This document shows positions 5,923-26,739 of a stretch of 28,283 bases of DNA, in pieces. The notes under the pieces are model-generated. The model was not told where the DNA came from and ran no database searches. It saw nothing but the letters and a program-made list of their open reading frames with translations. The stretch is taken from positions 1 through 28,283 of IMG/VR virus record IMGVR_UViG_3300038406_000282; one strand, 5' to 3'. Each line of letters begins with the position of its first letter. The stretch's first letter is position 1. The translations under genes were made by a program, and so were the position numbers. The stretch is from a virus. Lineage: Duplodnaviria > Caudoviricetes.

Positions 5923-6222
5923 ATGGTGAAGTACGCAAAGATCGATGCGGCGATTCGGTGGAGTGGCGGTACGACGATCCTGAGAAAGGGGCAGACCGCC
6001 GACGACGACCATCCGCTGGTCAGGGAGCGGCCGGATCTGTGGCGCGACGAGTCCCCGGGTGCATCACTGAAGACGCCGCGTACCGGTCCGCCGGCGGTCG
6101 AGCGGGCAACCCGCGCGCCCGGCGAGGTCCGCAAGGCGCTGAGCCGGCCGGCCAAGAAGGTGGCCAAGCCTGCCGAGGCGAAGGAGTCGAAGCCGACCGC
6201 CGCCGCGACCGACGATGAGTGA
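5923..6222 (+). CDS. Small post-capsid virion-associated protein
   Basis: GAGGAG RBS. VERATRAPGEVR motif of the kind seen in small actinophage genes after the capsid. Lys/Ala/Pro-rich tail. Confidence 0.7.
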   Translation: MVKYAKIDAAIRWSGGTTILRKGQTADDDHPLVRERPDLWRDESPGASLKTPRTGPPAVERATRAPGEVRKALSRPAKKVAKPAEAKESKPTAAATDDE

Positions 6223-6976
6223 TCGCTCGGTGCCCAGCAACGGTCGGGTACAGCTCGTGTACCTGCACCCACACCGCGTCTCGCACAGCTGGCATGAGTC
6301 CATGATGCGGCTAGTGGCATACGACGCGGCCAGCGAGGGCCGGATCGTGTCGACCGGCGGCCCGTTCATGATCTCCTGTGACGCCGGCGGCCTGGTCGAG
6401 GCCCGCAACACCGGTGTGCAGCGGTTCCTCGACGAGACCGACCACGAGTGGTTGTGGTTCATCGACACCGACATGGGCTTCCAGCCGGACGTCGTCGACC
6501 GGCTGGTGGCCGCGGCGGATCCGGTGGACCGCCCGGTGGTGGGTGGGCTGTGCTTCGGCCTGCGCGAGGTGGCCTACGACGGGTACGGCGGGCGCCGGGT
6601 CATGCCGGTGCCGACGCTGTACATGCCGGCGAAGAGCACCCAGGGGCACGTCGGGTTCACCAACCGGTTCGAATACCCGTCCGACACCCTGCTACAGGTG
6701 GCAGGTACCGGCGCGGCGTGCCTGCTGATCCACCGCACCGTACTGGAGAAGCTGCGGGCGGAGCACGGCGATGGCTGGTTCGACCGGGTGCGCTACGGCG
6801 ACGGCGTGCCCATCTCCGAGGACCTCAGCTTCTGCGCACGGCTGGCCATGGCCGGCGTCCCGCTGTTCGTCCACACCGGCGTGAAGACCACCCACCACAA
6901 GCAGTTCTGGGTGTCCGACGACGACTACACCCCGCCCCGGGTGGTCCAGCCCGAGCCGGAGCCGGCCGATGGCTGA
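6215..6976 (+). CDS. Glycosyltransferase, GT-A fold (GT2-like)
   Basis: ARNTGVQRFL, WLWFIDTDMGF (DxD), GTGAACLLIHR, SEDLSFC and VHTGVKTTHHK. Confidence 0.85.
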   Translation: MSDRSVPSNGRVQLVYLHPHRVSHSWHESMMRLVAYDAASEGRIVSTGGPFMISCDAGGLVEARNTGVQRFLDETDHEWLWFIDTDMGFQPDVVDRLVAAADPVDRPVVGGLCFGLREVAYDGYGGRRVMPVPTLYMPAKSTQGHVGFTNRFEYPSDTLLQVAGTGAACLLIHRTVLEKLRAEHGDGWFDRVRYGDGVPISEDLSFCARLAMAGVPLFVHTGVKTTHHKQFWVSDDDYTPPRVVQPEPEPADG

Positions 6977-7679
6977 CCTGGCCGTGCTGGTCCCGACCCG
7001 GGAGCGGGTCGACCGGTTCGTGGCTATGGCCGACGCCTGCCACAACCTGGCCGCGGGCACGGTCGAGGTGGTCGCCTACGTCGACGACGACGACCCGCAG
7101 CTCGACCAGTACCGCAAGGAGATGCTGGGCCGGGGCCGGCTGCTGGTCGGGCCCCGGCTGAGCCTGTCCGCGGCGACCAACTTCGCCGCCACGTGGGTGC
7201 TGAACCCGCGCAACGGCGACTGCCCGCGGTGGCTGGCCAGCATGGGCGACGACCACCTGCCCCGTACGGCTGGCTGGGACTTCACGCTGGCGCAGGAGTG
7301 CGGCGAGGTCGGCTGGGCGTACGGCGACGACCAGCTGCAGGGCGGCCGCCTGCCGACCGCCTGGGTGCAGACGGCGAACCTGGCGCGGGCGCTGGGGTGG
7401 GTGATGCTGCCGGCCTGCCAGCACATGTACGTCGACAACGCCGTGGCCGCGCTGGGCAAGGCCGCGGACGCGATCCGGTACGTGCCGCAGGTCGTGATCG
7501 AGCACCTGCACCCGATCGCCCGCAAGGCGGCCGTGGACGCCACCTATCTGGCCACCAACACGAACCAGCAGTACGCCCGCGACCAGGCCGCCTACCGGGC
7601 GTGGCTGGCCGACGGGCTGGACCGCGCCGTCGAGCGGGTCCGCCAGCTGCAGCACAAGACCACGAGCGTCGGGAGGTAG
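6969..7679 (+). CDS. Glycosyltransferase, GT2-like
   Basis: LAVLVPTRER, VVAYVDDDD, SMGDDH (xDD), HMYVDN and IEHLHP. Confidence 0.8.
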   Translation: MADLAVLVPTRERVDRFVAMADACHNLAAGTVEVVAYVDDDDPQLDQYRKEMLGRGRLLVGPRLSLSAATNFAATWVLNPRNGDCPRWLASMGDDHLPRTAGWDFTLAQECGEVGWAYGDDQLQGGRLPTAWVQTANLARALGWVMLPACQHMYVDNAVAALGKAADAIRYVPQVVIEHLHPIARKAAVDATYLATNTNQQYARDQAAYRAWLADGLDRAVERVRQLQHKTTSVGR

Positions 7680-7682
7680 GCC

Positions 7683-8105
7683 ATGACCATCCTCGGAGAG
7701 TCCCTGTCGGTGGCCGACAGCGAGGCGGAACTGCTGCTGGCCCGGGGTAGCAGCACCAGCCGGCGGACCCGCCGCAAGGCACAGACTCTGCTGGTAGCCG
7801 ACCTGGCGTTCACGACCTGGGGTGAGCCGGTTGCCGACCGCGGGCAGGTCACCGTCACCGACCTGACCCCGGCCACCGGCGACATCGTCGGCGGTACCAC
7901 GGTCACCGCCACCGGCACCAACCTGCTGGGCGCCACCTCGGTCACGTTCGACGGCGCCGCCGGGACCAGCCTGACCGTCAACTCGGCCACCGAGCTGGAG
8001 GTGGACACTCCGGCCGGCAGCGTCGGCCAGGTGGATGTGGTCGCGATCACCCCGGCCGGCTCAGCGACGGTCACCGACGGGTTCGAGTACACCGACGAGG
8101 GCTGA
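7683..8105 (+). CDS. IPT/TIG (Ig-like) domain protein, probable virion decoration
   Basis: VTDLTPATGDIVGGTTVTATGTNL...VTFDG...SATELEVDTPAG...VDVVAITPAGS...FEY matches the IPT/TIG pattern. GGAGG RBS. Confidence 0.8.
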   Translation: MTILGESLSVADSEAELLLARGSSTSRRTRRKAQTLLVADLAFTTWGEPVADRGQVTVTDLTPATGDIVGGTTVTATGTNLLGATSVTFDGAAGTSLTVNSATELEVDTPAGSVGQVDVVAITPAGSATVTDGFEYTDEG

Positions 8106-11343: not shown

Positions 11344-11778
11344 ATGTCAAAAGAGACAGGCTTGGGTTGGACCGCGCTCACCATCGACGACGCCAGCGGC
11401 ACGCCGGTGGAGCTCGTTGACCCGGACAGCGGCGTCGACCCCGTCACGAACCTGTCGTGGGCGACCCCGCGGGCGGTGCAGGACGTCACCGGCATCGGCA
11501 AGTCGGCCATGGAGCGGCTGCTGCTGCTGGCGGACATGTCCACCACCTACAACGGGGTGTTCGACCCCGGCGCCAGCTCGGCGCACTCGGTGTTCCGCAC
11601 CATCCCGTCCACGAGCGTGGCCCGGACGACGCTGATCCAGATCTCCGGGCAGGAGCTGGATACGGAGCTGCTCTACACCGACTATGGGCTGACCCGCAAC
11701 CAGGACGGCAGTTTCACCTGGACGGTTCCCGGCGTGCTCGCCGACGGCACCGTACCCACGTGGGACACGGTCGCCTGA
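11344..11778 (+). CDS. Major tail tube protein (probable)
   Basis: MSKETGLG...QDVTGIGKSAMERLLLLAD...LADGTVPTW. Directly upstream of the chaperone and tape measure genes. Confidence 0.7.
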   Translation: MSKETGLGWTALTIDDASGTPVELVDPDSGVDPVTNLSWATPRAVQDVTGIGKSAMERLLLLADMSTTYNGVFDPGASSAHSVFRTIPSTSVARTTLIQISGQELDTELLYTDYGLTRNQDGSFTWTVPGVLADGTVPTWDTVA

Positions 11779-12194
11779 TGGGCTTCGAGGAGCCGCGCAC
11801 CATCGTCCGGGTCCAGTTCGCCGACCCGAGCTTCGCTGGGCTGGAGGTGCGCGCCTACGCGGCGCCCACCGACGTCCTCGAGGAGACGGCGGAGCTGGCG
11901 TTCGTCGACGGCAGCAAGCCGGTTGACCCGGCGACGCTTTCGCGCATCCGCGGCATCGTCAAGCGGTTCGCCGACGAGCTGGTGTCGTGGAACCTGGAGC
12001 GCGATGGGCAGCCGCAGCCGGCCACCGTCGAGGCGGTGCGCCGGCTCGATCTGACGTTCGCGTGGCAGCTGGTCGGCGGGTGGATCGTCGCTACCCACCG
12101 GGTGCTGGGCGGCGCCATGCAGGAGGCCCGCCAGCGGCAGGAGGCGGAGTTCGACGAGGCGGAGCTGCCGCCGATGGAGCTGCCCGCCGACTAG
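11778..12194 (+). CDS. Tail assembly chaperone
   Basis: TGATG coupling to the tube gene. LVSWNLE motif and acidic C-terminus ELPPME. Position before the tape measure gene. Confidence 0.7.
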   Translation: MGFEEPRTIVRVQFADPSFAGLEVRAYAAPTDVLEETAELAFVDGSKPVDPATLSRIRGIVKRFADELVSWNLERDGQPQPATVEAVRRLDLTFAWQLVGGWIVATHRVLGGAMQEARQRQEAEFDEAELPPMELPAD

Positions 12195-12436
12195 TCCTGC
12201 CCGCGCCTGAGCTGCCAGCAGATGCCGGCGCCGGCCAGCACCACGGCGAGCATCACCCCGCCCGCAGCCAGCAGTGTCCGCCCCATCTCGGCCGCGGCGG
12301 GGTCGTAGTCGAAGGCGGCGGGGTCGGCGTTGCTGCTGGTGAGGATGATCCCGGCCAGCCCGACGGCGACGGTAATGAGCCAGCCGGTGATCAGCCAGGG
12401 GTTGGTGTCGGTGGCGATCCGCTTGGTGGTGGTCAT
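12191..12436 (-). CDS. Antisense 81-aa two-TM membrane protein (moron-like)
   Basis: MTTTKRIATDTNPWLITGWLITVAVGLAGIIL...LLAAGGVMLAVVLAGAGICWQLRR. Fills the gap between chaperone and tape measure; the two stops overlap in CTAG. Confidence 0.75.
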   Translation of the reverse strand: MTTTKRIATDTNPWLITGWLITVAVGLAGIILTSSNADPAAFDYDPAAAEMGRTLLAAGGVMLAVVLAGAGICWQLRRGQD

Positions 12437-17457: not shown

Positions 17458-17967
17458 GTGGCGCATGACCCGTTCCTGCCCGGCCAGCCGGTCGACCCGG
17501 ACCGGATCAACGAGCTGGACGTCCAGGGGACCTACGCGCCGGCGCTGACCGCCACCGGCGGCACACCCAACCTCGGCTCGACCGGCGAAGCCGTCGGGGT
17601 GTGGTGGCGCTCCGGACATTGGATGCAGGTGTTTGCCCGGTTCCTGTTCAGTGGCACGGGGATCGCCACCGGCGGCGGTGGCGTGTTCCACGTCAGTCTG
17701 CCTTTCCAGCCGGACCTGTCGCTGGTCGACGCCAACCCGTTCGACTCCACCTCGCTTAACGTCGGGTACGGGTGGATCCGCGACAGCTCGGCCGGCCTGA
17801 ACAGCCGCATCGTCACCGTCCAGCTGCGACCGTTCGACATCACCGGGCTCATCCACGCGCAGATGCGGCAGCCAGGCCTGGCGTCCGGCGTGTCCGGCAC
17901 CTCCCCGTTCACGGTCGCGACCGGAGACCGGATCGGCCTCAACTTCGCCTACCCGGTGGAGGACTGA
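17458..17967 (+). CDS. Minor tail / receptor-binding-like protein, paralog 1
   Basis: GTYAPALTATGGTPNLG...GVWWRSGHW...ARFLF...VSLPF. Beta-rich head-domain pattern. Confidence 0.7.
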   Translation: MAHDPFLPGQPVDPDRINELDVQGTYAPALTATGGTPNLGSTGEAVGVWWRSGHWMQVFARFLFSGTGIATGGGGVFHVSLPFQPDLSLVDANPFDSTSLNVGYGWIRDSSAGLNSRIVTVQLRPFDITGLIHAQMRQPGLASGVSGTSPFTVATGDRIGLNFAYPVED

Positions 17968-18488: not shown

Positions 18489-19004
18489 ATGCCGCATGAC
18501 CGCCTCCTGGTGGGTCAGATCGTAGACCCGGACCGGGTGAACATCCTGGACACACAGGGCACCTACACCCCGACGTTGCAGGCCACCACCACCAACCCGA
18601 CTCTTGGGACGGGTGCGGTGGCGGCCGGCCACTGGTGGCGTAGCGGGCATTGGATCGAAGGGTTCGCCCGGTTCGAGTTCGGTACCAGCATGAACGCCGG
18701 CTCGGGCACGTACTACATCTCCGTCCCGTTCCAGCCGGACATCACCCTGATGGGTTCCTCGGGGACCGGCGGGGCGGCGCAGCGGTGCGCCTTCGGGCGG
18801 GTGCGGGACCTCGACACTGGCGCAAACTCCAACACGGTGGTGGGGCAGTTCCGGACTGAGTCCGGCACCCACTACCTGTGGTTCTCGACCAACGGCAGCA
18901 TCAACTCGGTGTCCCACAACAGCCCGGTGCCGTGGGCCACCGGCGACCTGATCAGCATCCAGTTTGGCTACCTGGCCGACCCCGACGACCTGCCCACCCC
19001 GTAG
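18489..19004 (+). CDS. Minor tail / receptor-binding-like protein, paralog 3
   Basis: GTYTPTLQATTTNPTLG...GHWWRSGHW...ARFEF...ISVPF. Confidence 0.7.
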   Translation: MPHDRLLVGQIVDPDRVNILDTQGTYTPTLQATTTNPTLGTGAVAAGHWWRSGHWIEGFARFEFGTSMNAGSGTYYISVPFQPDITLMGSSGTGGAAQRCAFGRVRDLDTGANSNTVVGQFRTESGTHYLWFSTNGSINSVSHNSPVPWATGDLISIQFGYLADPDDLPTP

Positions 19005-19888: not shown

Positions 19889-20170
19889 GTGGCCGCTGAG
19901 CACGAGGTCACCAATGCCGAGCTGGCGCGCAGGCTGGAGCACGTCTCCCGCGAGGTCCACACCGACCTCACCGAGATCATGCGCCGAATGGACTCCTACG
20001 TCCTGCGCGAGGTGTACGCCTCCGACCAGCAGCGCCGCGAGGACCAGGTGCAGGCCGTCAACCGGGAGCTGGAGCGGATCCGCGGTCAGGTCCGCTGGCT
20101 GTGGAGCGCGGTCGTGATGCCGATCCTGGCGCTGGTGATCTCGGTGTGGATGCAGGCGGGTGGTGGCTGA
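19889..20170 (+). CDS. Lysis-cassette membrane protein (coiled coil plus C-terminal TM)
   Basis: [11 protein letters not shown]...[20 protein letters not shown]. Directly after the endolysin. Confidence 0.7.
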
Positions 20171-20804
20171 GGTGGGTGTCCACGGCACACGGTTGACGGC
20201 GCGGCTCCAGGCGGTGGCCGGGCGGTGGGCGTGGCTGGCGGTGGCGCTGGTCGGTGCGGTGGTGCTGGCGTTCGGCGCCTACGAGCTCGGGCAGATGCGC
20301 GCGCAGCGGGACGCGTTGGCGGTGGCGCTGGACTTGCAGCGGCAGCAGGCGGTGGAGTCGGGGCAGACGCCGGTGGCGCCGGCGGCTGAGGAGGTGCGCC
20401 GTGATCCGCAGGTGATGGAGGGTGAGCAGGGTCCGCCCGGGCCGCCCGGTCCCGCGGGACCTGCGGGGCCGCGTGGCCTGGTCGGGCCGACTGGCCCGGC
20501 CGGTCCGGAGGGCAACCCGGGAGCTCCCGGCGAGGCCGGCCCGGCGGGTCAGGGCGGACCCGCGGGATCGACCGGCGAGCAGGGACCAGCCGGCTCGCAG
20601 GGTCTACCGGGCGCCGACGGCCAGGCCGGCCAGGACGGCGCCGACGGCGAGCAGGGGCCGGCGGGCCCGGAAGGACCCGCGGGCCCGACCGGTCCAGCGG
20701 GGCCACCGGGGCCGGCGTGCCCCGACGGGTGGCACCCCGAGGAACGGACCGTACTCACACCACCCGAGACGTGGGTCGTGTGCGTTCAAGATCAAGGAGA
20801 GTAG
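20160..20804 (+). CDS. Membrane-anchored collagen-like protein
   Basis: N-terminal TM ([19 protein letters not shown]), 33 uninterrupted Gly-X-Y triplets and C-terminal CPDGW...C. Exact start uncertain (20160, 20163 or 20172). Confidence 0.85.
20421..20717 (+). repeat. Collagen (Gly-X-Y)33 repeat
   Basis: [12 protein letters not shown] ... GPP GPA, counted from the translation. Confidence 0.9.
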
Positions 20805-20807
20805 GGC

Positions 20808-21245
20808 ATGGCGACACGACTTCCCGACGCGTCCCAGCAGGCCGCCGCCAACGCGGTGGTGGACCTGGCCGACGTCGGCACCACCAACACCGAAGGCAAG
20901 CTGCGGATCTACTCCGGCACCCAGCCGGCCGACGCCGACAGCGCCCCCGGCGGCGACCTGCTGTGTGAGATCGACCTCGAGGATCCGGCGTATGGTGCCG
21001 CCAACAGCTCGGGCACCGCGGCCGCGCTCGGGGTGCCGCTGGCTGGAGTCGGCACCGCGGCGGCGAGCACCGGCACCAACGCGCAGTCGTTCCGGATCGT
21101 AGGCCGCGACGAGCAGACCGTGTACGACGGGGCGGTAACCGGCACCGGCGGCGGAGGCGAGCTGACCCTCGACAACGTGTCCATCGCCGAGGACCAGGCG
21201 GTAACCGTCACCGCGCTGACCTACACGCAGCCCTCGGGAAACTGA
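20808..21245 (+). CDS. 145-aa beta-rich putative virion structural subunit
   Basis: AAGGAG RBS. LRIYSGTQPADAD...FRIV...VYDGAVTGTGGGGELTLDNVSI. Ends in the slippery G GGA AAC TGA. Confidence 0.8.
   Translation: MATRLPDASQQAAANAVVDLADVGTTNTEGKLRIYSGTQPADADSAPGGDLLCEIDLEDPAYGAANSSGTAAALGVPLAGVGTAAASTGTNAQSFRIVGRDEQTVYDGAVTGTGGGGELTLDNVSIAEDQAVTVTALTYTQPSGN
21236..21242 (+). other. Predicted -1 programmed ribosomal frameshift heptamer G GGA AAC
   Basis: X XXY YYZ heptamer in the correct phase, directly before the TGA. The -1 frame is open and continuous to 22177. Short GC stem CGGCC-ccg-GGCCG at 21247-21259. Confidence 0.75.
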
Positions 21246-22177
21246 CCGGCCCCGGGCCGATCTCCGGCGCTGCCGTCAGCGTGGCTCCGGCCGCGGTGGC
21301 GGCCGGCACCGGGTCGACCGGGGCGGAACCCGCCAACGTGCTGGACGGCTGGACGGTCGCCGGCTACGACACGTGGACCAACCCGCACGGTTGGCCGGAC
21401 TCCAGCAACACTGGCACGTCTGGGACGCTCACCCCGTTCTCGGGCGAGCTGTCCACGTCGTCCAACGGGCAGGTGATCGAGGACCTGGACATCGACGGCC
21501 GGGTCGAGGTCAACCACTCGGGTGTCATCATCCGCAACTGCCGGATCACCTCGCCGGGCGGCGCGTCTTTCCCGGGGAGCAAGTGTGTCTACGGCGGCGG
21601 CGGGGACTTGCAGGGCCTGCTCGTCGAGGACTGCGAGCTGACCTCCGCCAACGCCGGCACCTACGACTCGGTCATCGGGGACGACAACTACACGCTGCGG
21701 CGCACGTTCATCCACCACGTACCCGAGGGTCCGCGGATCGGCGACAACGTCCTGTACGAGGACTGCTACTTCGCCTTGCTCATCGGCAACGACGAGGAGG
21801 CGCACAGCGACGGCAGCCAGGTCACCGGATCATGCGTGGACTCGACCTACCGCCACAACACGGTGATCGCTGTCAACGTGGACGACGGCGACCAGACCAG
21901 CGCCCTACTCTGCGGGCCGGACCTCGGTGACGTGACCGGGCTGGTGGTGGAGGACAACCTGTTTGCCGCCGGCGGGTATACCACCTACTTCGGAGGGTCT
22001 GACTTCGACGCCGACGACTGGACCATCACCGGCAACCGGTACGGGCCGCTGACCGGCGACATGGCGCCCACCTTCGGCCGGCTGTCCGGGAACATCGGCG
22101 GGGTCACGAACCTGACCTGGTCCGGCAACGTCGTCGACGCCGACAACACCGAGCTGACGTTGGGGGACTTCGTGTGA
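21242..22177 (+). CDS. Right-handed parallel beta-helix (pectin-lyase-like) domain, probably expressed as a frameshift fusion with the 20808 gene
   Basis: VIEDLDI, VIIRNCRI, LLVEDCEL, HSDGSQ, YRHNTV, VVEDNLF and ITGNRY repeats. No RBS before GTG 21281 (the ORF-track start). Confidence 0.75.
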   Translation: MTGPGPISGAAVSVAPAAVAAGTGSTGAEPANVLDGWTVAGYDTWTNPHGWPDSSNTGTSGTLTPFSGELSTSSNGQVIEDLDIDGRVEVNHSGVIIRNCRITSPGGASFPGSKCVYGGGGDLQGLLVEDCELTSANAGTYDSVIGDDNYTLRRTFIHHVPEGPRIGDNVLYEDCYFALLIGNDEEAHSDGSQVTGSCVDSTYRHNTVIAVNVDDGDQTSALLCGPDLGDVTGLVVEDNLFAAGGYTTYFGGSDFDADDWTITGNRYGPLTGDMAPTFGRLSGNIGGVTNLTWSGNVVDADNTELTLGDFV

Positions 22178-23304
22178 GCGTCACGGTTCGCGAGGTGGTG
22201 CGGGCTGCCGACGACGTGACCCAGCAGCAGGTGGTCACCAGCTCAGCCGTGGCCATCGGCGACCTGTTGCTGCTGGTGCACATGACCGACGGCGATGGTG
22301 CGTCGGACATGCTCGCGCCGACCGGCACCGACGACGAGGACTGGCAGGGTCCGGTCATCATCGGTCGGGACAACGAGACCAGCACCACGCACATCAAAGC
22401 CTGGTGGCGCGAGGTGACCACCGGCGGAGCGCAGACCGTCAACACCAACCAGAGCGCCGACTGGAGCAACCACAACCACACGTTCGTGCTCATTGGTGTT
22501 GATCTGACCGACCCGATCGTGGCCGTCGGCGAAGGGTCCTCGTTCAGCGACAGCCAGGTGGCGCCGGGAATCTCCGGGCTCGACGAGGGACTGCTTGTCT
22601 GCGGCTGGATCTCCGATGACAATGGGTTGGCGTACGCCGCGCCCGGCAGCATGACCGGCGGGACCACCGATAGCGGCTTCAGCGACTCGCTGACCGCGTG
22701 GGAGGCGCTGGCCGCCGACGGCGCGACCGGCGACCGCACCGCCACCGCCAACGCCGAGAAGACCTACACCGCGGTGTCGGTGACCATCCGCCCGGCCGGC
22801 GGCGACGAAGGGGTGACCGGCGAGGGCGCGGCCACCGCCCCGACAGCGGTTGCCGCCGGAGCCGGTACGGCGCAGGTCGCGGGAACCGGCGCGGCGAGCG
22901 GCGCAGCAGCCACCAGCGCGGCCGCCGGGACCGTGGCCGTCTCCGGGACCGCCGCCGCCACTGCGGCCGCCGCAGAGGCCGCCGGGGTCGGCAGTCTGGC
23001 GGTCTCCGGCTCGGCGGCATCCGCCGCCCCGGCCGCGGTCGCCGCGGGCGTCGGCGAGGTGATCGTCTCCGGCTCCGGCGCCGCGGTCGCGCCCGCTGGT
23101 GCTGCGGCTGGCGCCGGGTTCGTCGGGGACACCGCGCCGCCGCCGGTCGACCTGAACGTGACCATCGGTGCGATGCGCGATGGGGGGCTGGCCGCCGTCG
23201 GCACGATGCGCGACGCGGCCGCCACCTCGGTCGCCGGCATGGCCCCGCCGACCTCGGTCGGGGCGATGCGCACCACCTTCACCGTCGGCAGCATGAGGGA
23301 GTAG
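22174..23304 (+). CDS. Putative appendage protein: about 205-aa beta-sandwich domain, five 21-aa Ala/Gly repeats and VGxMR repeats
   Basis: GTGA coupling to the upstream ORF. N-terminal domain resembles the insert in the 14608 tail protein. Confidence 0.75.
   Translation: MSVTVREVVRAADDVTQQQVVTSSAVAIGDLLLLVHMTDGDGASDMLAPTGTDDEDWQGPVIIGRDNETSTTHIKAWWREVTTGGAQTVNTNQSADWSNHNHTFVLIGVDLTDPIVAVGEGSSFSDSQVAPGISGLDEGLLVCGWISDDNGLAYAAPGSMTGGTTDSGFSDSLTAWEALAADGATGDRTATANAEKTYTAVSVTIRPAGGDEGVTGEGAATAPTAVAAGAGTAQVAGTGAASGAAATSAAAGTVAVSGTAAATAAAAEAAGVGSLAVSGSAASAAPAAVAAGVGEVIVSGSGAAVAPAGAAAGAGFVGDTAPPPVDLNVTIGAMRDGGLAAVGTMRDAAATSVAGMAPPTSVGAMRTTFTVGSMRE
22813..23127 (+). repeat. Five tandem 21-aa (63-bp) degenerate repeats
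   Basis: VTGEGAATAPTAVAAGAGTAQ / VAGTGAASGAAATSAAAGTVA / VSGTAAATAAAAEAAGVGSLA / VSGSAASAAPAAVAAGVGEVI / VSGSGAAVAPAGAAAGAGFVG. Confidence 0.85.
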
Positions 23305-23307
23305 GCC

Positions 23308-23646
23308 GTGGCCGAGATCTATCAGTTCGCCACCGAGTACAGGCGCATGGCCATCACGATCGCCGCCGGCGGCGACGTCGAGGACATCCTGGCTGTGGGG
23401 ATCGCCCTACGGGCCAACCCGAACGACGTGCCCGATCCGGGTGGCATCGAGGACCTGGGCGAGTTCACCGCGGTCACCCTCGACGACGCGGCCACACCGC
23501 CGGACATCCTGGCACTGATCGGCCCCCGCGGCGGCGACCTGGAGCCGACGGTGGCCGACTGGCAGGTGTTCACCCTGGTCCGCACCGCCGACGAGGACAT
23601 CATCGACCAGCCGGACACGCTGACCGTGGTCGGGACGCCGGCATGA
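23308..23646 (+). CDS. Hypothetical acidic beta-rich protein
   Basis: GGGAG RBS. LIGPRGG...WQVFTLV resembles small actinophage tail-associated adaptors. Confidence 0.7.
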   Translation: MAEIYQFATEYRRMAITIAAGGDVEDILAVGIALRANPNDVPDPGGIEDLGEFTAVTLDDAATPPDILALIGPRGGDLEPTVADWQVFTLVRTADEDIIDQPDTLTVVGTPA

Positions 23647-25899: not shown

Positions 25900-26739
25900 C
25901 TACGCCGCGAACGTGGTCCGCCGACGCCGCGCCAGCCACAGCGCGCCGCCACCAACCGCAGCCGCCGCCCCGCCGGCCACTGCCAGCCCGGCCGCCGGCA
26001 CACCGGTCGTCGGCAGCTGTTCGTCGCCCGGCTCGTCGATCGCGCACAGCGGCAGGAACCCGTCGCCGCCGGCGACCAGCTCAGCCAGCCGCGGCCCGCC
26101 GGTGGCCAGGCCGTCTACCCGGCCTAGGTCGTCCACGCTGGCGAACGGCCGCAACTCGAGGATCTGCTGCGCCCGGTCGGCGTCGACGTGCATGAGCTGG
26201 AGCAGCTCCTCGGCGGTCGCTTCGTTGACGTCCACACACGGCTCGGTGGTGGGCTCCACCGTCGGCTCGACGGTCGGGTCCGGCGTCGGGTCGACCGTCG
26301 GCGTGGGCTCCGGCTCACAGCCCTCCACGGCGAGCTCGTGCCACGCCACCCCCGGCGCGTCGCCGTCGAGCACGTCCCCGCCGGCCTGCAGGTGGTCCAG
26401 CAGGTCCTGCAGGTCCTGCAGCGCCGGGTCGTCGTAGTCCCGCTCGCCGCCGCCCCAGGTGCGCCACTGCACCGCCGTGGTGCCCGGCGCCAGCTCGACG
26501 TCGAGCTGGTCGCCGACCTCGGCGGTGTGGACCTCGCCGGCCACGCGGACCACGACCACGGCGTTGGGCGACAGGTGTTCGTCGCTCGCCCACGCGGAGC
26601 TGGCGGTGAGCTGGCAGCCGTCCGCCTGGATGTCCACGCTCACCTCGTTGTGGTGGGCGCTGGCCGGGCTGGCGAGCGCGAGCCCGCCGACGGCCAGCCC
26701 TACGGCCACCGCTGCCCATCTGCTGATCTTCATCCTCAT
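25900..26739 (-). CDS. Secreted, sortase-anchored (LPTTG) protein with a ComEA-like helix-hairpin-helix domain
   Basis: Signal peptide ending ASPASA, PT/PE linker, CVDVNEATAEELLQL..VDADRAQQILELRPFASVDDLGRVDGL, then LPTTG, TM and RRRR. Confidence 0.85.
   Translation of the reverse strand: MRMKISRWAAVAVGLAVGGLALASPASAHHNEVSVDIQADGCQLTASSAWASDEHLSPNAVVVVRVAGEVHTAEVGDQLDVELAPGTTAVQWRTWGGGERDYDDPALQDLQDLLDHLQAGGDVLDGDAPGVAWHELAVEGCEPEPTPTVDPTPDPTVEPTVEPTTEPCVDVNEATAEELLQLMHVDADRAQQILELRPFASVDDLGRVDGLATGGPRLAELVAGGDGFLPLCAIDEPGDEQLPTTGVPAAGLAVAGGAAAAVGGGALWLARRRRTTFAA

Follow-up and report, generated by a model that had tools for sequence, protein, structure and literature searches.

A putative -1 frameshift at the end of a garland/whisker bead gene in a metagenomic phage record

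The bead gene and the open frame behind its stop

The window analysed here is the whole linear IMG/VR record IMGVR_UViG_3300038406_000282 (28,283 nt), which is metagenomic and about 41% complete. The locus under study lies 3' of the lysis genes and holds, all on the plus strand, a gene for a 145-aa bead protein, a -1 frame that encodes a beta-helix domain, a fibre gene with a 21-aa repeat and a gene of 112 aa. The GC content of the record is about 70%, and its late operon contains terminase, portal, protease, capsid, two glycosyltransferase, major tail protein, tape measure and minor tail genes, together with amidase, holin-like and collagen-like genes. No window gene matched a sheath protein, so the phage is probably a siphovirus; the GC content and the closest named homologs (Actinophytocola and Amycolatopsis) point to an actinobacterial host.

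Several other features of the window were recorded. The two glycosyltransferase-like genes (6215-7679) lie between the capsid and head-tail adaptor genes, and we take it that they possibly serve virion glycosylation. A stand-alone IPT/TIG Ig-like domain protein is encoded at 7683-8105 in the head-neck region (Pfam E 3e-9), and two small paralogous genes (17458-17967 and 18489-19004) each match the C-terminal part of phrog_13144. On the minus strand, 25900-26739 encodes a protein with a signal-like N-terminus, a helix-hairpin-helix motif and an LPXTG-like anchor, resembling ComEA-like cargo. The gene at the tail assembly chaperone position (11778-12194) ends without an X XXY YYZ heptamer, and a small minus-strand ORF with hydrophobic segments (about 12192-12430) occupies the gap 5' of the tape measure gene, so that the usual G/GT frameshift appears to be absent from this phage.

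The bead gene (20808..21245) runs from an ATG at 20808 to a TGA at 21243-21245 and is preceded by a Shine-Dalgarno-like site at 20793..20801 (duplex -8.3 kcal/mol, spacing 6). Its product was assigned to phrog_3758 (PHROGs E 1.4e-20), and a profile built from 75 bead sequences matched PDB chain 9rkv_A, the garland of Agrobacterium phage 7-7-1, at E 8e-20. This chain has 141 aa, the same length as 7-7-1 gp014, which in the available text of the source is named the garland protein and forms 36 homodimers around the baseplate (PMC12796354). The predicted bead structure (pLDDT 89) matched 9rkv_A with a VIA Z of 12.7 (rmsd 2.5, 132 residues aligned), followed by the Sf14 neck chain 9c39_K (Z 10.5) and GP4 fibre I 8jou_a (Z 7.3); by Foldseek it matched Bas63 connector chains, with a garland/whisker likeness at E 3.5e-8. 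The first-pass annotation had set the 145-aa product beside capsid or tube subunits that phages extend by frameshifts. The likeness to 9rkv_A makes it a garland/whisker-type virion protein, and a capsid or tube identity was ruled out, the major capsid (4300) and major tail (10150) proteins being other genes.

The bead gene ends TCG GGA AAC TGA, and the heptamer G GGA AAC (21236..21242) is a correctly phased X XXY YYZ sequence that abuts the stop. The -1 frame is free of stops from 20969 to 22174; counted from the CTG at 21242 it comprises 311 codons up to a stop at 22175-22177, and a -1 fusion would have 145 + 311 = 456 aa. Both the phased heptamer and the open frame, with a fusion of about this length, had been proposed in the first-pass annotation and are plainly present. 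The annotation overlooked that this CTG overlaps the bead stop as C-TGA (21242..21245) and is a rival start; canonical NTGA overlaps with the same geometry occur in 9/188 family junctions.

Four X XXY YYZ heptamers (Y = A or T) were counted on the plus strand of the 28 kb, and only the one at 21236-21242 is in phase in a listed gene. Its chance occurrence was 3.9e-4 per codon, or 1.9% given the encoded Ser-Gly-Asn, and it uses GGA, the rarest Gly codon here (40/675); since a very large scan led to the choice of this site, the chance figure alone is not decisive. What counts is that the heptamer sits at the single junction without a good downstream start. The same sequence is indeed an established slippery site that is used in bacteria, as had been claimed: according to the available parts of the sources, G_GG.A_AA.C has low efficiency in E. 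coli yet is among the commoner insertion sequence heptamers (PMC4066793), and it is the annotated tail chaperone slip site of Microbacterium phage Trackstar (PMC13460127).

A long GC-rich stem-loop (21246..21326) follows the stop. For the segment 21243-21330 the minimum free energy was -63.2 kcal/mol (z -3.56); the fold includes a helix at 21250-21255, which begins 7 nt past the heptamer, and an outer helix of 3 bp that begins at 21246. The stem noted in the first reading is therefore real, but it is locally unexceptional, because similar z values were obtained in 2 other of 72 folding segments across 20160-23300, both in Gly/Ala repeats. It buries the GTG at 21281..21283, the start chosen by the gene callers. 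This GTG has a Shine-Dalgarno duplex of only -1.9 kcal/mol and an unpaired fraction of 0.14, the lowest among 25 start sites tested, in agreement with the earlier remark that the downstream ORF has no ribosome-binding site. The 13 codons before it (21242-21280) have G or C at the third position in 12/13 cases, and the same proportion over the whole 311-codon frame was 0.92-0.94. A 3998-nt Logan contig crosses the junction with 0 differences and 0 gaps; it is perhaps from the same sample and is not independent, yet it counts against an assembly error, which was left unsupported.

The globular domain of the -1 frame (21329..22177) was predicted to be a right-handed parallel beta-helix, with the helix at about 21419-22174. 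When the protein was modelled alone, residues 1-25 were disordered and the remainder reached pLDDT 88. VIA matched the model to polysaccharide lyases, glycoside hydrolases and tailspikes at Z 16-19 with 8-16% identity, and Atlas features for a beta-helix fold scored 0.98; Foldseek gave weak matches only, and Pfam Beta_helix was found at E 0.004, below the cut-off. The beta-helix anticipated in the first-pass annotation was thereby upheld and placed in the polysaccharide lyase/tailspike fold class. The predicted structures show the fold class of both the bead and the beta-helix domain. Conserved Arg, His, Asp and Asn columns in the beta-helix alignment A3 are only suggestive of glycan binding or catalysis. 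The domain is a mobile one, with 2237 representatives found at E up to 0.001, and the bead domain was absent from all beta-helix homologs examined. In one homolog, P0157, a long Ala/Gly region that resembles the rope stands in frame with a beta-helix at the C-terminus.

The 21-aa rope unit and its predicted fit to the bead dimer

The next gene (22174..23304) encodes a 376-aa fibre protein with an N-terminal domain, five tandem 21-aa Ala/Gly units (22804-23118) and short C-terminal repeats. A sixth, complete unit lies in the -1 frame behind the bead gene at 21251..21313 and scored 24.1 bits against a repeat profile made without the window. It is preceded by a Pro/Gly-rich linker of about 10 residues that resembles the linker before the first unit of the fibre gene. 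The codons 5' of the GTG look coding and supply the first half of a unit, as the first reading had held. The 10 residues before the GTG scored 7.1 bits with the same profile, a value reached by 0.13% of 28,251 10-mers from the window but low for real units (5th-25th percentile), and the last eleven residues of the unit, from the GTG on, scored 17.0 bits. Val is normal at the unit position of the GTG (53/456). With the iterated repeat profile, at least two units were detected within 3 kb downstream of 78/202 family junctions, the window included, a count that is partly circular because the profile was trained on those loci.

A 112-aa gene (23308..23646) follows the fibre gene; a homolog with 60% identity stands 3' of a rope-bearing gene in locus L241, and similarly sized genes occupy the equivalent place in L103, L104 and L105. 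Short C-terminal repeats follow the rope units both here (23146-23301) and in L241 (4110-4976), with a homologous gene of 112-115 aa next in each, and the two elements may be an anchor pair. The -1 frame lacks C-terminal repeats of this type, and a covalent link to the bead would supply the anchor.

The complex of two beads and the first 37 residues of the -1 frame was modelled, giving a score of 0.93 in three runs, compared with 0.02 for the best of three controls; the mark used was attained by 116/157 solved pairs and 2/215 mismatched pairs. The runs agreed in at least 96% of contacts, and the partner had a pLDDT of 80. Partner residues 3-30 lie in the predicted interface. One bead contributes its residues 118-119 and 132-141, which pair with partner residues 7-15; the other bead is contacted by partner residues 18-24. 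One unit would therefore span one dimer, with the GTG (residue 14) near its middle, and a protein started there would lose most of one half-site. Half of the modelled interface comes from codons that precede the GTG, and these codons are therefore probably translated, through either a frameshift or a start at 21242. The model supports binding of a 21-aa unit by a bead dimer, although it may mirror the likeness to solved whisker-rope complexes, and it reads the same for a fusion as for a separate chain. The 21-aa repeat is likely to be the rope bound by garland/whisker beads.

Relatives of the bead and of the junction

The bead family was collected in scans that covered 60/64, 45/64 and 29/64 database parts, with 80 of 340 and 80 of 182 relatives retained in the last two, and in three further family searches, in which beads were found in 8, 5 and 9 of 401 genomes. 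In 197 non-redundant genes of the family, the final 30 nt contained no heptamer. Among 202 junctions, an X XXY YYZ heptamer ending within 6 nt of the stop was detected in the window only (0/201 others), and 19 further junctions gave 0/19, or 0/220 others overall. Only one of 120 homologous proteins, the window's own, ends in Gly-Asn. The conservation of GGGAAAC-stop in homologs, proposed as a check in the first-pass annotation, accordingly failed. At most of these loci, however, the bead is followed by another gene that has a start of its own, which makes them an unfair test of heptamer conservation. The next start lies within 15 nt of the bead stop in 139/188 family junctions, compared with 35 nt here.

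The fair test is provided by two relatives in Logan, whose beta-helices are 80% (P0122) and 77% (P0123) identical to that of the window and whose beads are 83% (P0155) and 75% (P0023) identical. P0155 with P0122 and P0023 with P0123 form apparent bead/beta-helix pairs, matched by the equal lengths of their contigs (3435 and 4235). Both beads end in Pro-Gly-Gly, so that neither relative can encode G GGA AAC; they could use a slip site in a run of G, or a GGC TGA or GGT TGA overlap. P0122 and P0123 were called at the same mid-unit codon as the GTG at 21281 and keep the half unit, which is conserved in 10/10 and 9/10 residues after the start, whereas the next segment diverges. Scans with the beta-helix alignment recovered only distant loci (5 viral, 7 genome), and the loci of these closest relatives were not among them. 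A search for the junction pattern yielded 0 other matches in 240 loci, 5 viral matches of which none had a bead domain, and 33 more matches of which none had a bead or beta-helix domain. G GGA AAC appears to be a signal restricted to the present lineage.

Other arrangements were found in the family. In L229 a bead gene is joined through TAATG to a beta-helix gene, and in L216, L219 and L191 rope-first genes with their own ATG or GTG stand behind the beads, which makes separate coupled genes the family norm. Among 8000 candidates scored, all 15 longer family members carried the bead domain at the C-terminus (15/15) and none had a C-terminal extension; the lack of an in-frame bead-first fusion among these 15 is a weak negative. 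Seven proteins (P0139, P0140 and P0142-P0146) are in-frame fusions with the bead domain C-terminal behind large or carbohydrate-binding (PF02018) domains, a mirror image of the present arrangement. The bead gene at L287/L289 (G045:C1:1263600-1264027) is split between frames: profile positions 1-66 match in one and 67-140 in another, the two matches overlap, and the copy is either broken or frameshifted.

Explanations of the junction and their meaning

We consider a lineage-level -1 frameshift at G GGA AAC, yielding a branched fibre, to be somewhat better than an even prospect. The only in-phase heptamer of the listed genes sits at the one junction whose downstream gene has no usable start, and a rope with a C-terminal beta-helix in frame has a precedent in P0157. 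A frameshift accounts for the heptamer and its rare GGA codon, and also for the complete rope unit and for the missing anchor-like C-terminal repeat on the beta-helix protein. Against it stand the lack of the heptamer at the 220 other junctions, the two beta-helix relatives, which would need another site such as a run of G, the repeat regions that match the stem, the low score of the half unit before the GTG, and the family norm of own starts. Translational coupling is an unlikely alternative: ribosomes would re-initiate at the CTG overlapping the TGA and make a separate 311-aa rope and beta-helix protein, like Milano gp126 or the Bas63 collar, with the heptamer a product of chance. The geometry of this overlap (-4) equals that of the GTGA at 22174 and of the nine family junctions mentioned above; L229 has a beta-helix gene with a coupled ATG, and rope-first genes are known. 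Coupling also accounts for the whole rope unit, the predicted interface starts at residue 3 of the CTG frame, and the Gly-Gly-stop of the relatives would fit GGC TGA or GGT TGA without a heptamer. The CTG, however, has no Shine-Dalgarno sequence (-1.1 kcal/mol) and a strong stem immediately 3', and the heptamer, at its per-codon chance, has to be a coincidence. In the available text of a mycobacterial reporter screen, leadered starts required a Shine-Dalgarno sequence and CTG, a poor start in mycobacteria, was not enriched (0.03%) (PMC4633059). L025 and L287 have C-TGA-CC followed by a true ATG or GTG, which indicates that such a CTG can be a by-product.

Initiation at the GTG at 21281 also appears improbable. 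It would make the beta-helix protein at a low level, the half rope unit would plug one groove of the bead dimer, and the 13 upstream codons would be the relic of a longer fibre gene. The same codon was called in three lineages, the half unit behind it has the higher score of the two, and in the complex model each half touches a different bead. Yet the site has a near-zero Shine-Dalgarno duplex and is the most occluded of the starts tested, it lies farther from the bead stop than the next start in most family junctions, and the upstream codons retain their third-position G or C and their likeness to a unit at the 0.13% level; Val is ordinary at that unit position. The interval 21255-21280 contains no TA dinucleotide, and therefore no TANNNT -10 box for a leaderless transcript from the GTG. 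Far less probable is that the beta-helix ORF is a startless remnant that is not expressed, or that one wrong base in the assembly hides a natural in-frame fusion. No working start is evident and the record is metagenomic and incomplete, but the separately assembled contig, probably from the same sample, is identical across the junction, the beta-helix ORF is intact in two relatives at 77-80% identity, where it was called apart from the bead, and the longer homologs include no bead-first in-frame fusion.

If the -1 frameshift takes place, a minority of ribosomes would slip at G GGA AAC just 5' of the bead stop and make the 456-aa fusion, which would join the bead, through a short Pro/Gly linker, to one 21-aa rope unit and then to the beta-helix. 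In the manner of Bas63 whiskers, GP4 fibre I and A1002 fibres, bead dimers would be threaded on the five rope units of the neighbouring fibre protein (22174). A fusion subunit in this string would offer a rope unit of its own and recruit one more dimer. Because the model places the C-termini of both beads halfway along the bound unit, the fused rope is expected to thread a second dimer and not its own. The beta-helix would be displayed as a side branch at the tip, where it may bind or cleave a host surface glycan, and a low slip rate would keep such branches few relative to the beads. The arrangement probably goes back to a gene for a rope and a beta-helix whose 5' part, with the start, was lost and whose remainder ended up after the bead stop in another frame. 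Each step of this branched-fibre assembly is one that we infer.

The locus resembles several known systems, which are described here from the available portions of the sources. Slips that extend coat and major tail proteins occur in T3/T7 gp10, Lactobacillus A2 and Listeria A118/A500/PSA, where the added domains are mostly Ig-like and are attributed to domains landing out of frame (PMC5009743). Here, too, ribosomes would slip close to the end of a gene for an abundant structural protein and put a C-terminal domain on a fraction of the subunits; the proposed event differs in that it is putative, its carrier is a garland/whisker bead and its extension is a rope unit with a beta-helix. It shares the heptamer, the -1 shift and an actinobacterial precedent with the G/GT frameshift of tail assembly chaperones (lambda; GGGAAAC in Microbacterium cluster EE, PMC13460127). 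Unlike that frameshift, it concerns another locus and another protein, and the chaperone-position gene of this phage has no such heptamer.

In sequence and fold the bead is homologous to the garlands of phages 7-7-1 (gp014, 9RKV) and Milano (gp125/gp127). Both of these are myoviruses with beads at the baseplate, in contrast to the window, which carries genes for a major tail protein and a tape measure but lacks a sheath match. The word 'frameshift' is absent from the 7-7-1 paper (PMC12796354). For Milano, the identity of the 'string' was posed as a question in the portion available, and gp126, with a long N-terminal string and a globular domain, was proposed (PMC10811340); its layout is that of the -1 frame described here. 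In Bas63, a rope runs through such dimers as a string runs through beads and fills out their incomplete beta-sandwiches (PMC12609058), and the chain-like fibres of A1002 and GP4 fibre I are built likewise (PMC13730344). The modelled bead dimer takes up the 21-aa unit in the same way as in the Bas63/Sf14 whiskers, GP4 fibre I and A1002. In those systems, as far as the accessible parts of the two papers go, the rope either is a protein by itself or belongs to a collar or nozzle protein, and a bead-fused rope is not described (PMC12609058, PMC13730344). No frameshift in a garland or whisker gene was found in the literature searched, the coverage of which was incomplete and excluded supplements.

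We propose tentatively, at somewhat less than even confidence, that a fraction of the garland beads become branch points through a programmed -1 slip, each with its own rope unit, an extra dimer and a glycan-active beta-helix, that the slip rate sets the branching, and that the widespread 21-aa Ala/Gly repeat is the garland 'string'. If this is true, phage recoding, known from tail chaperones, capsids and tail tubes, would gain a fourth class in the garland/whisker beads, and receptor-binding fibres would be branched with a stoichiometry set at the ribosome. Independently of the frameshift, the 21-aa Ala/Gly unit, one per bead dimer, offers a testable candidate for the 'string' of Milano.
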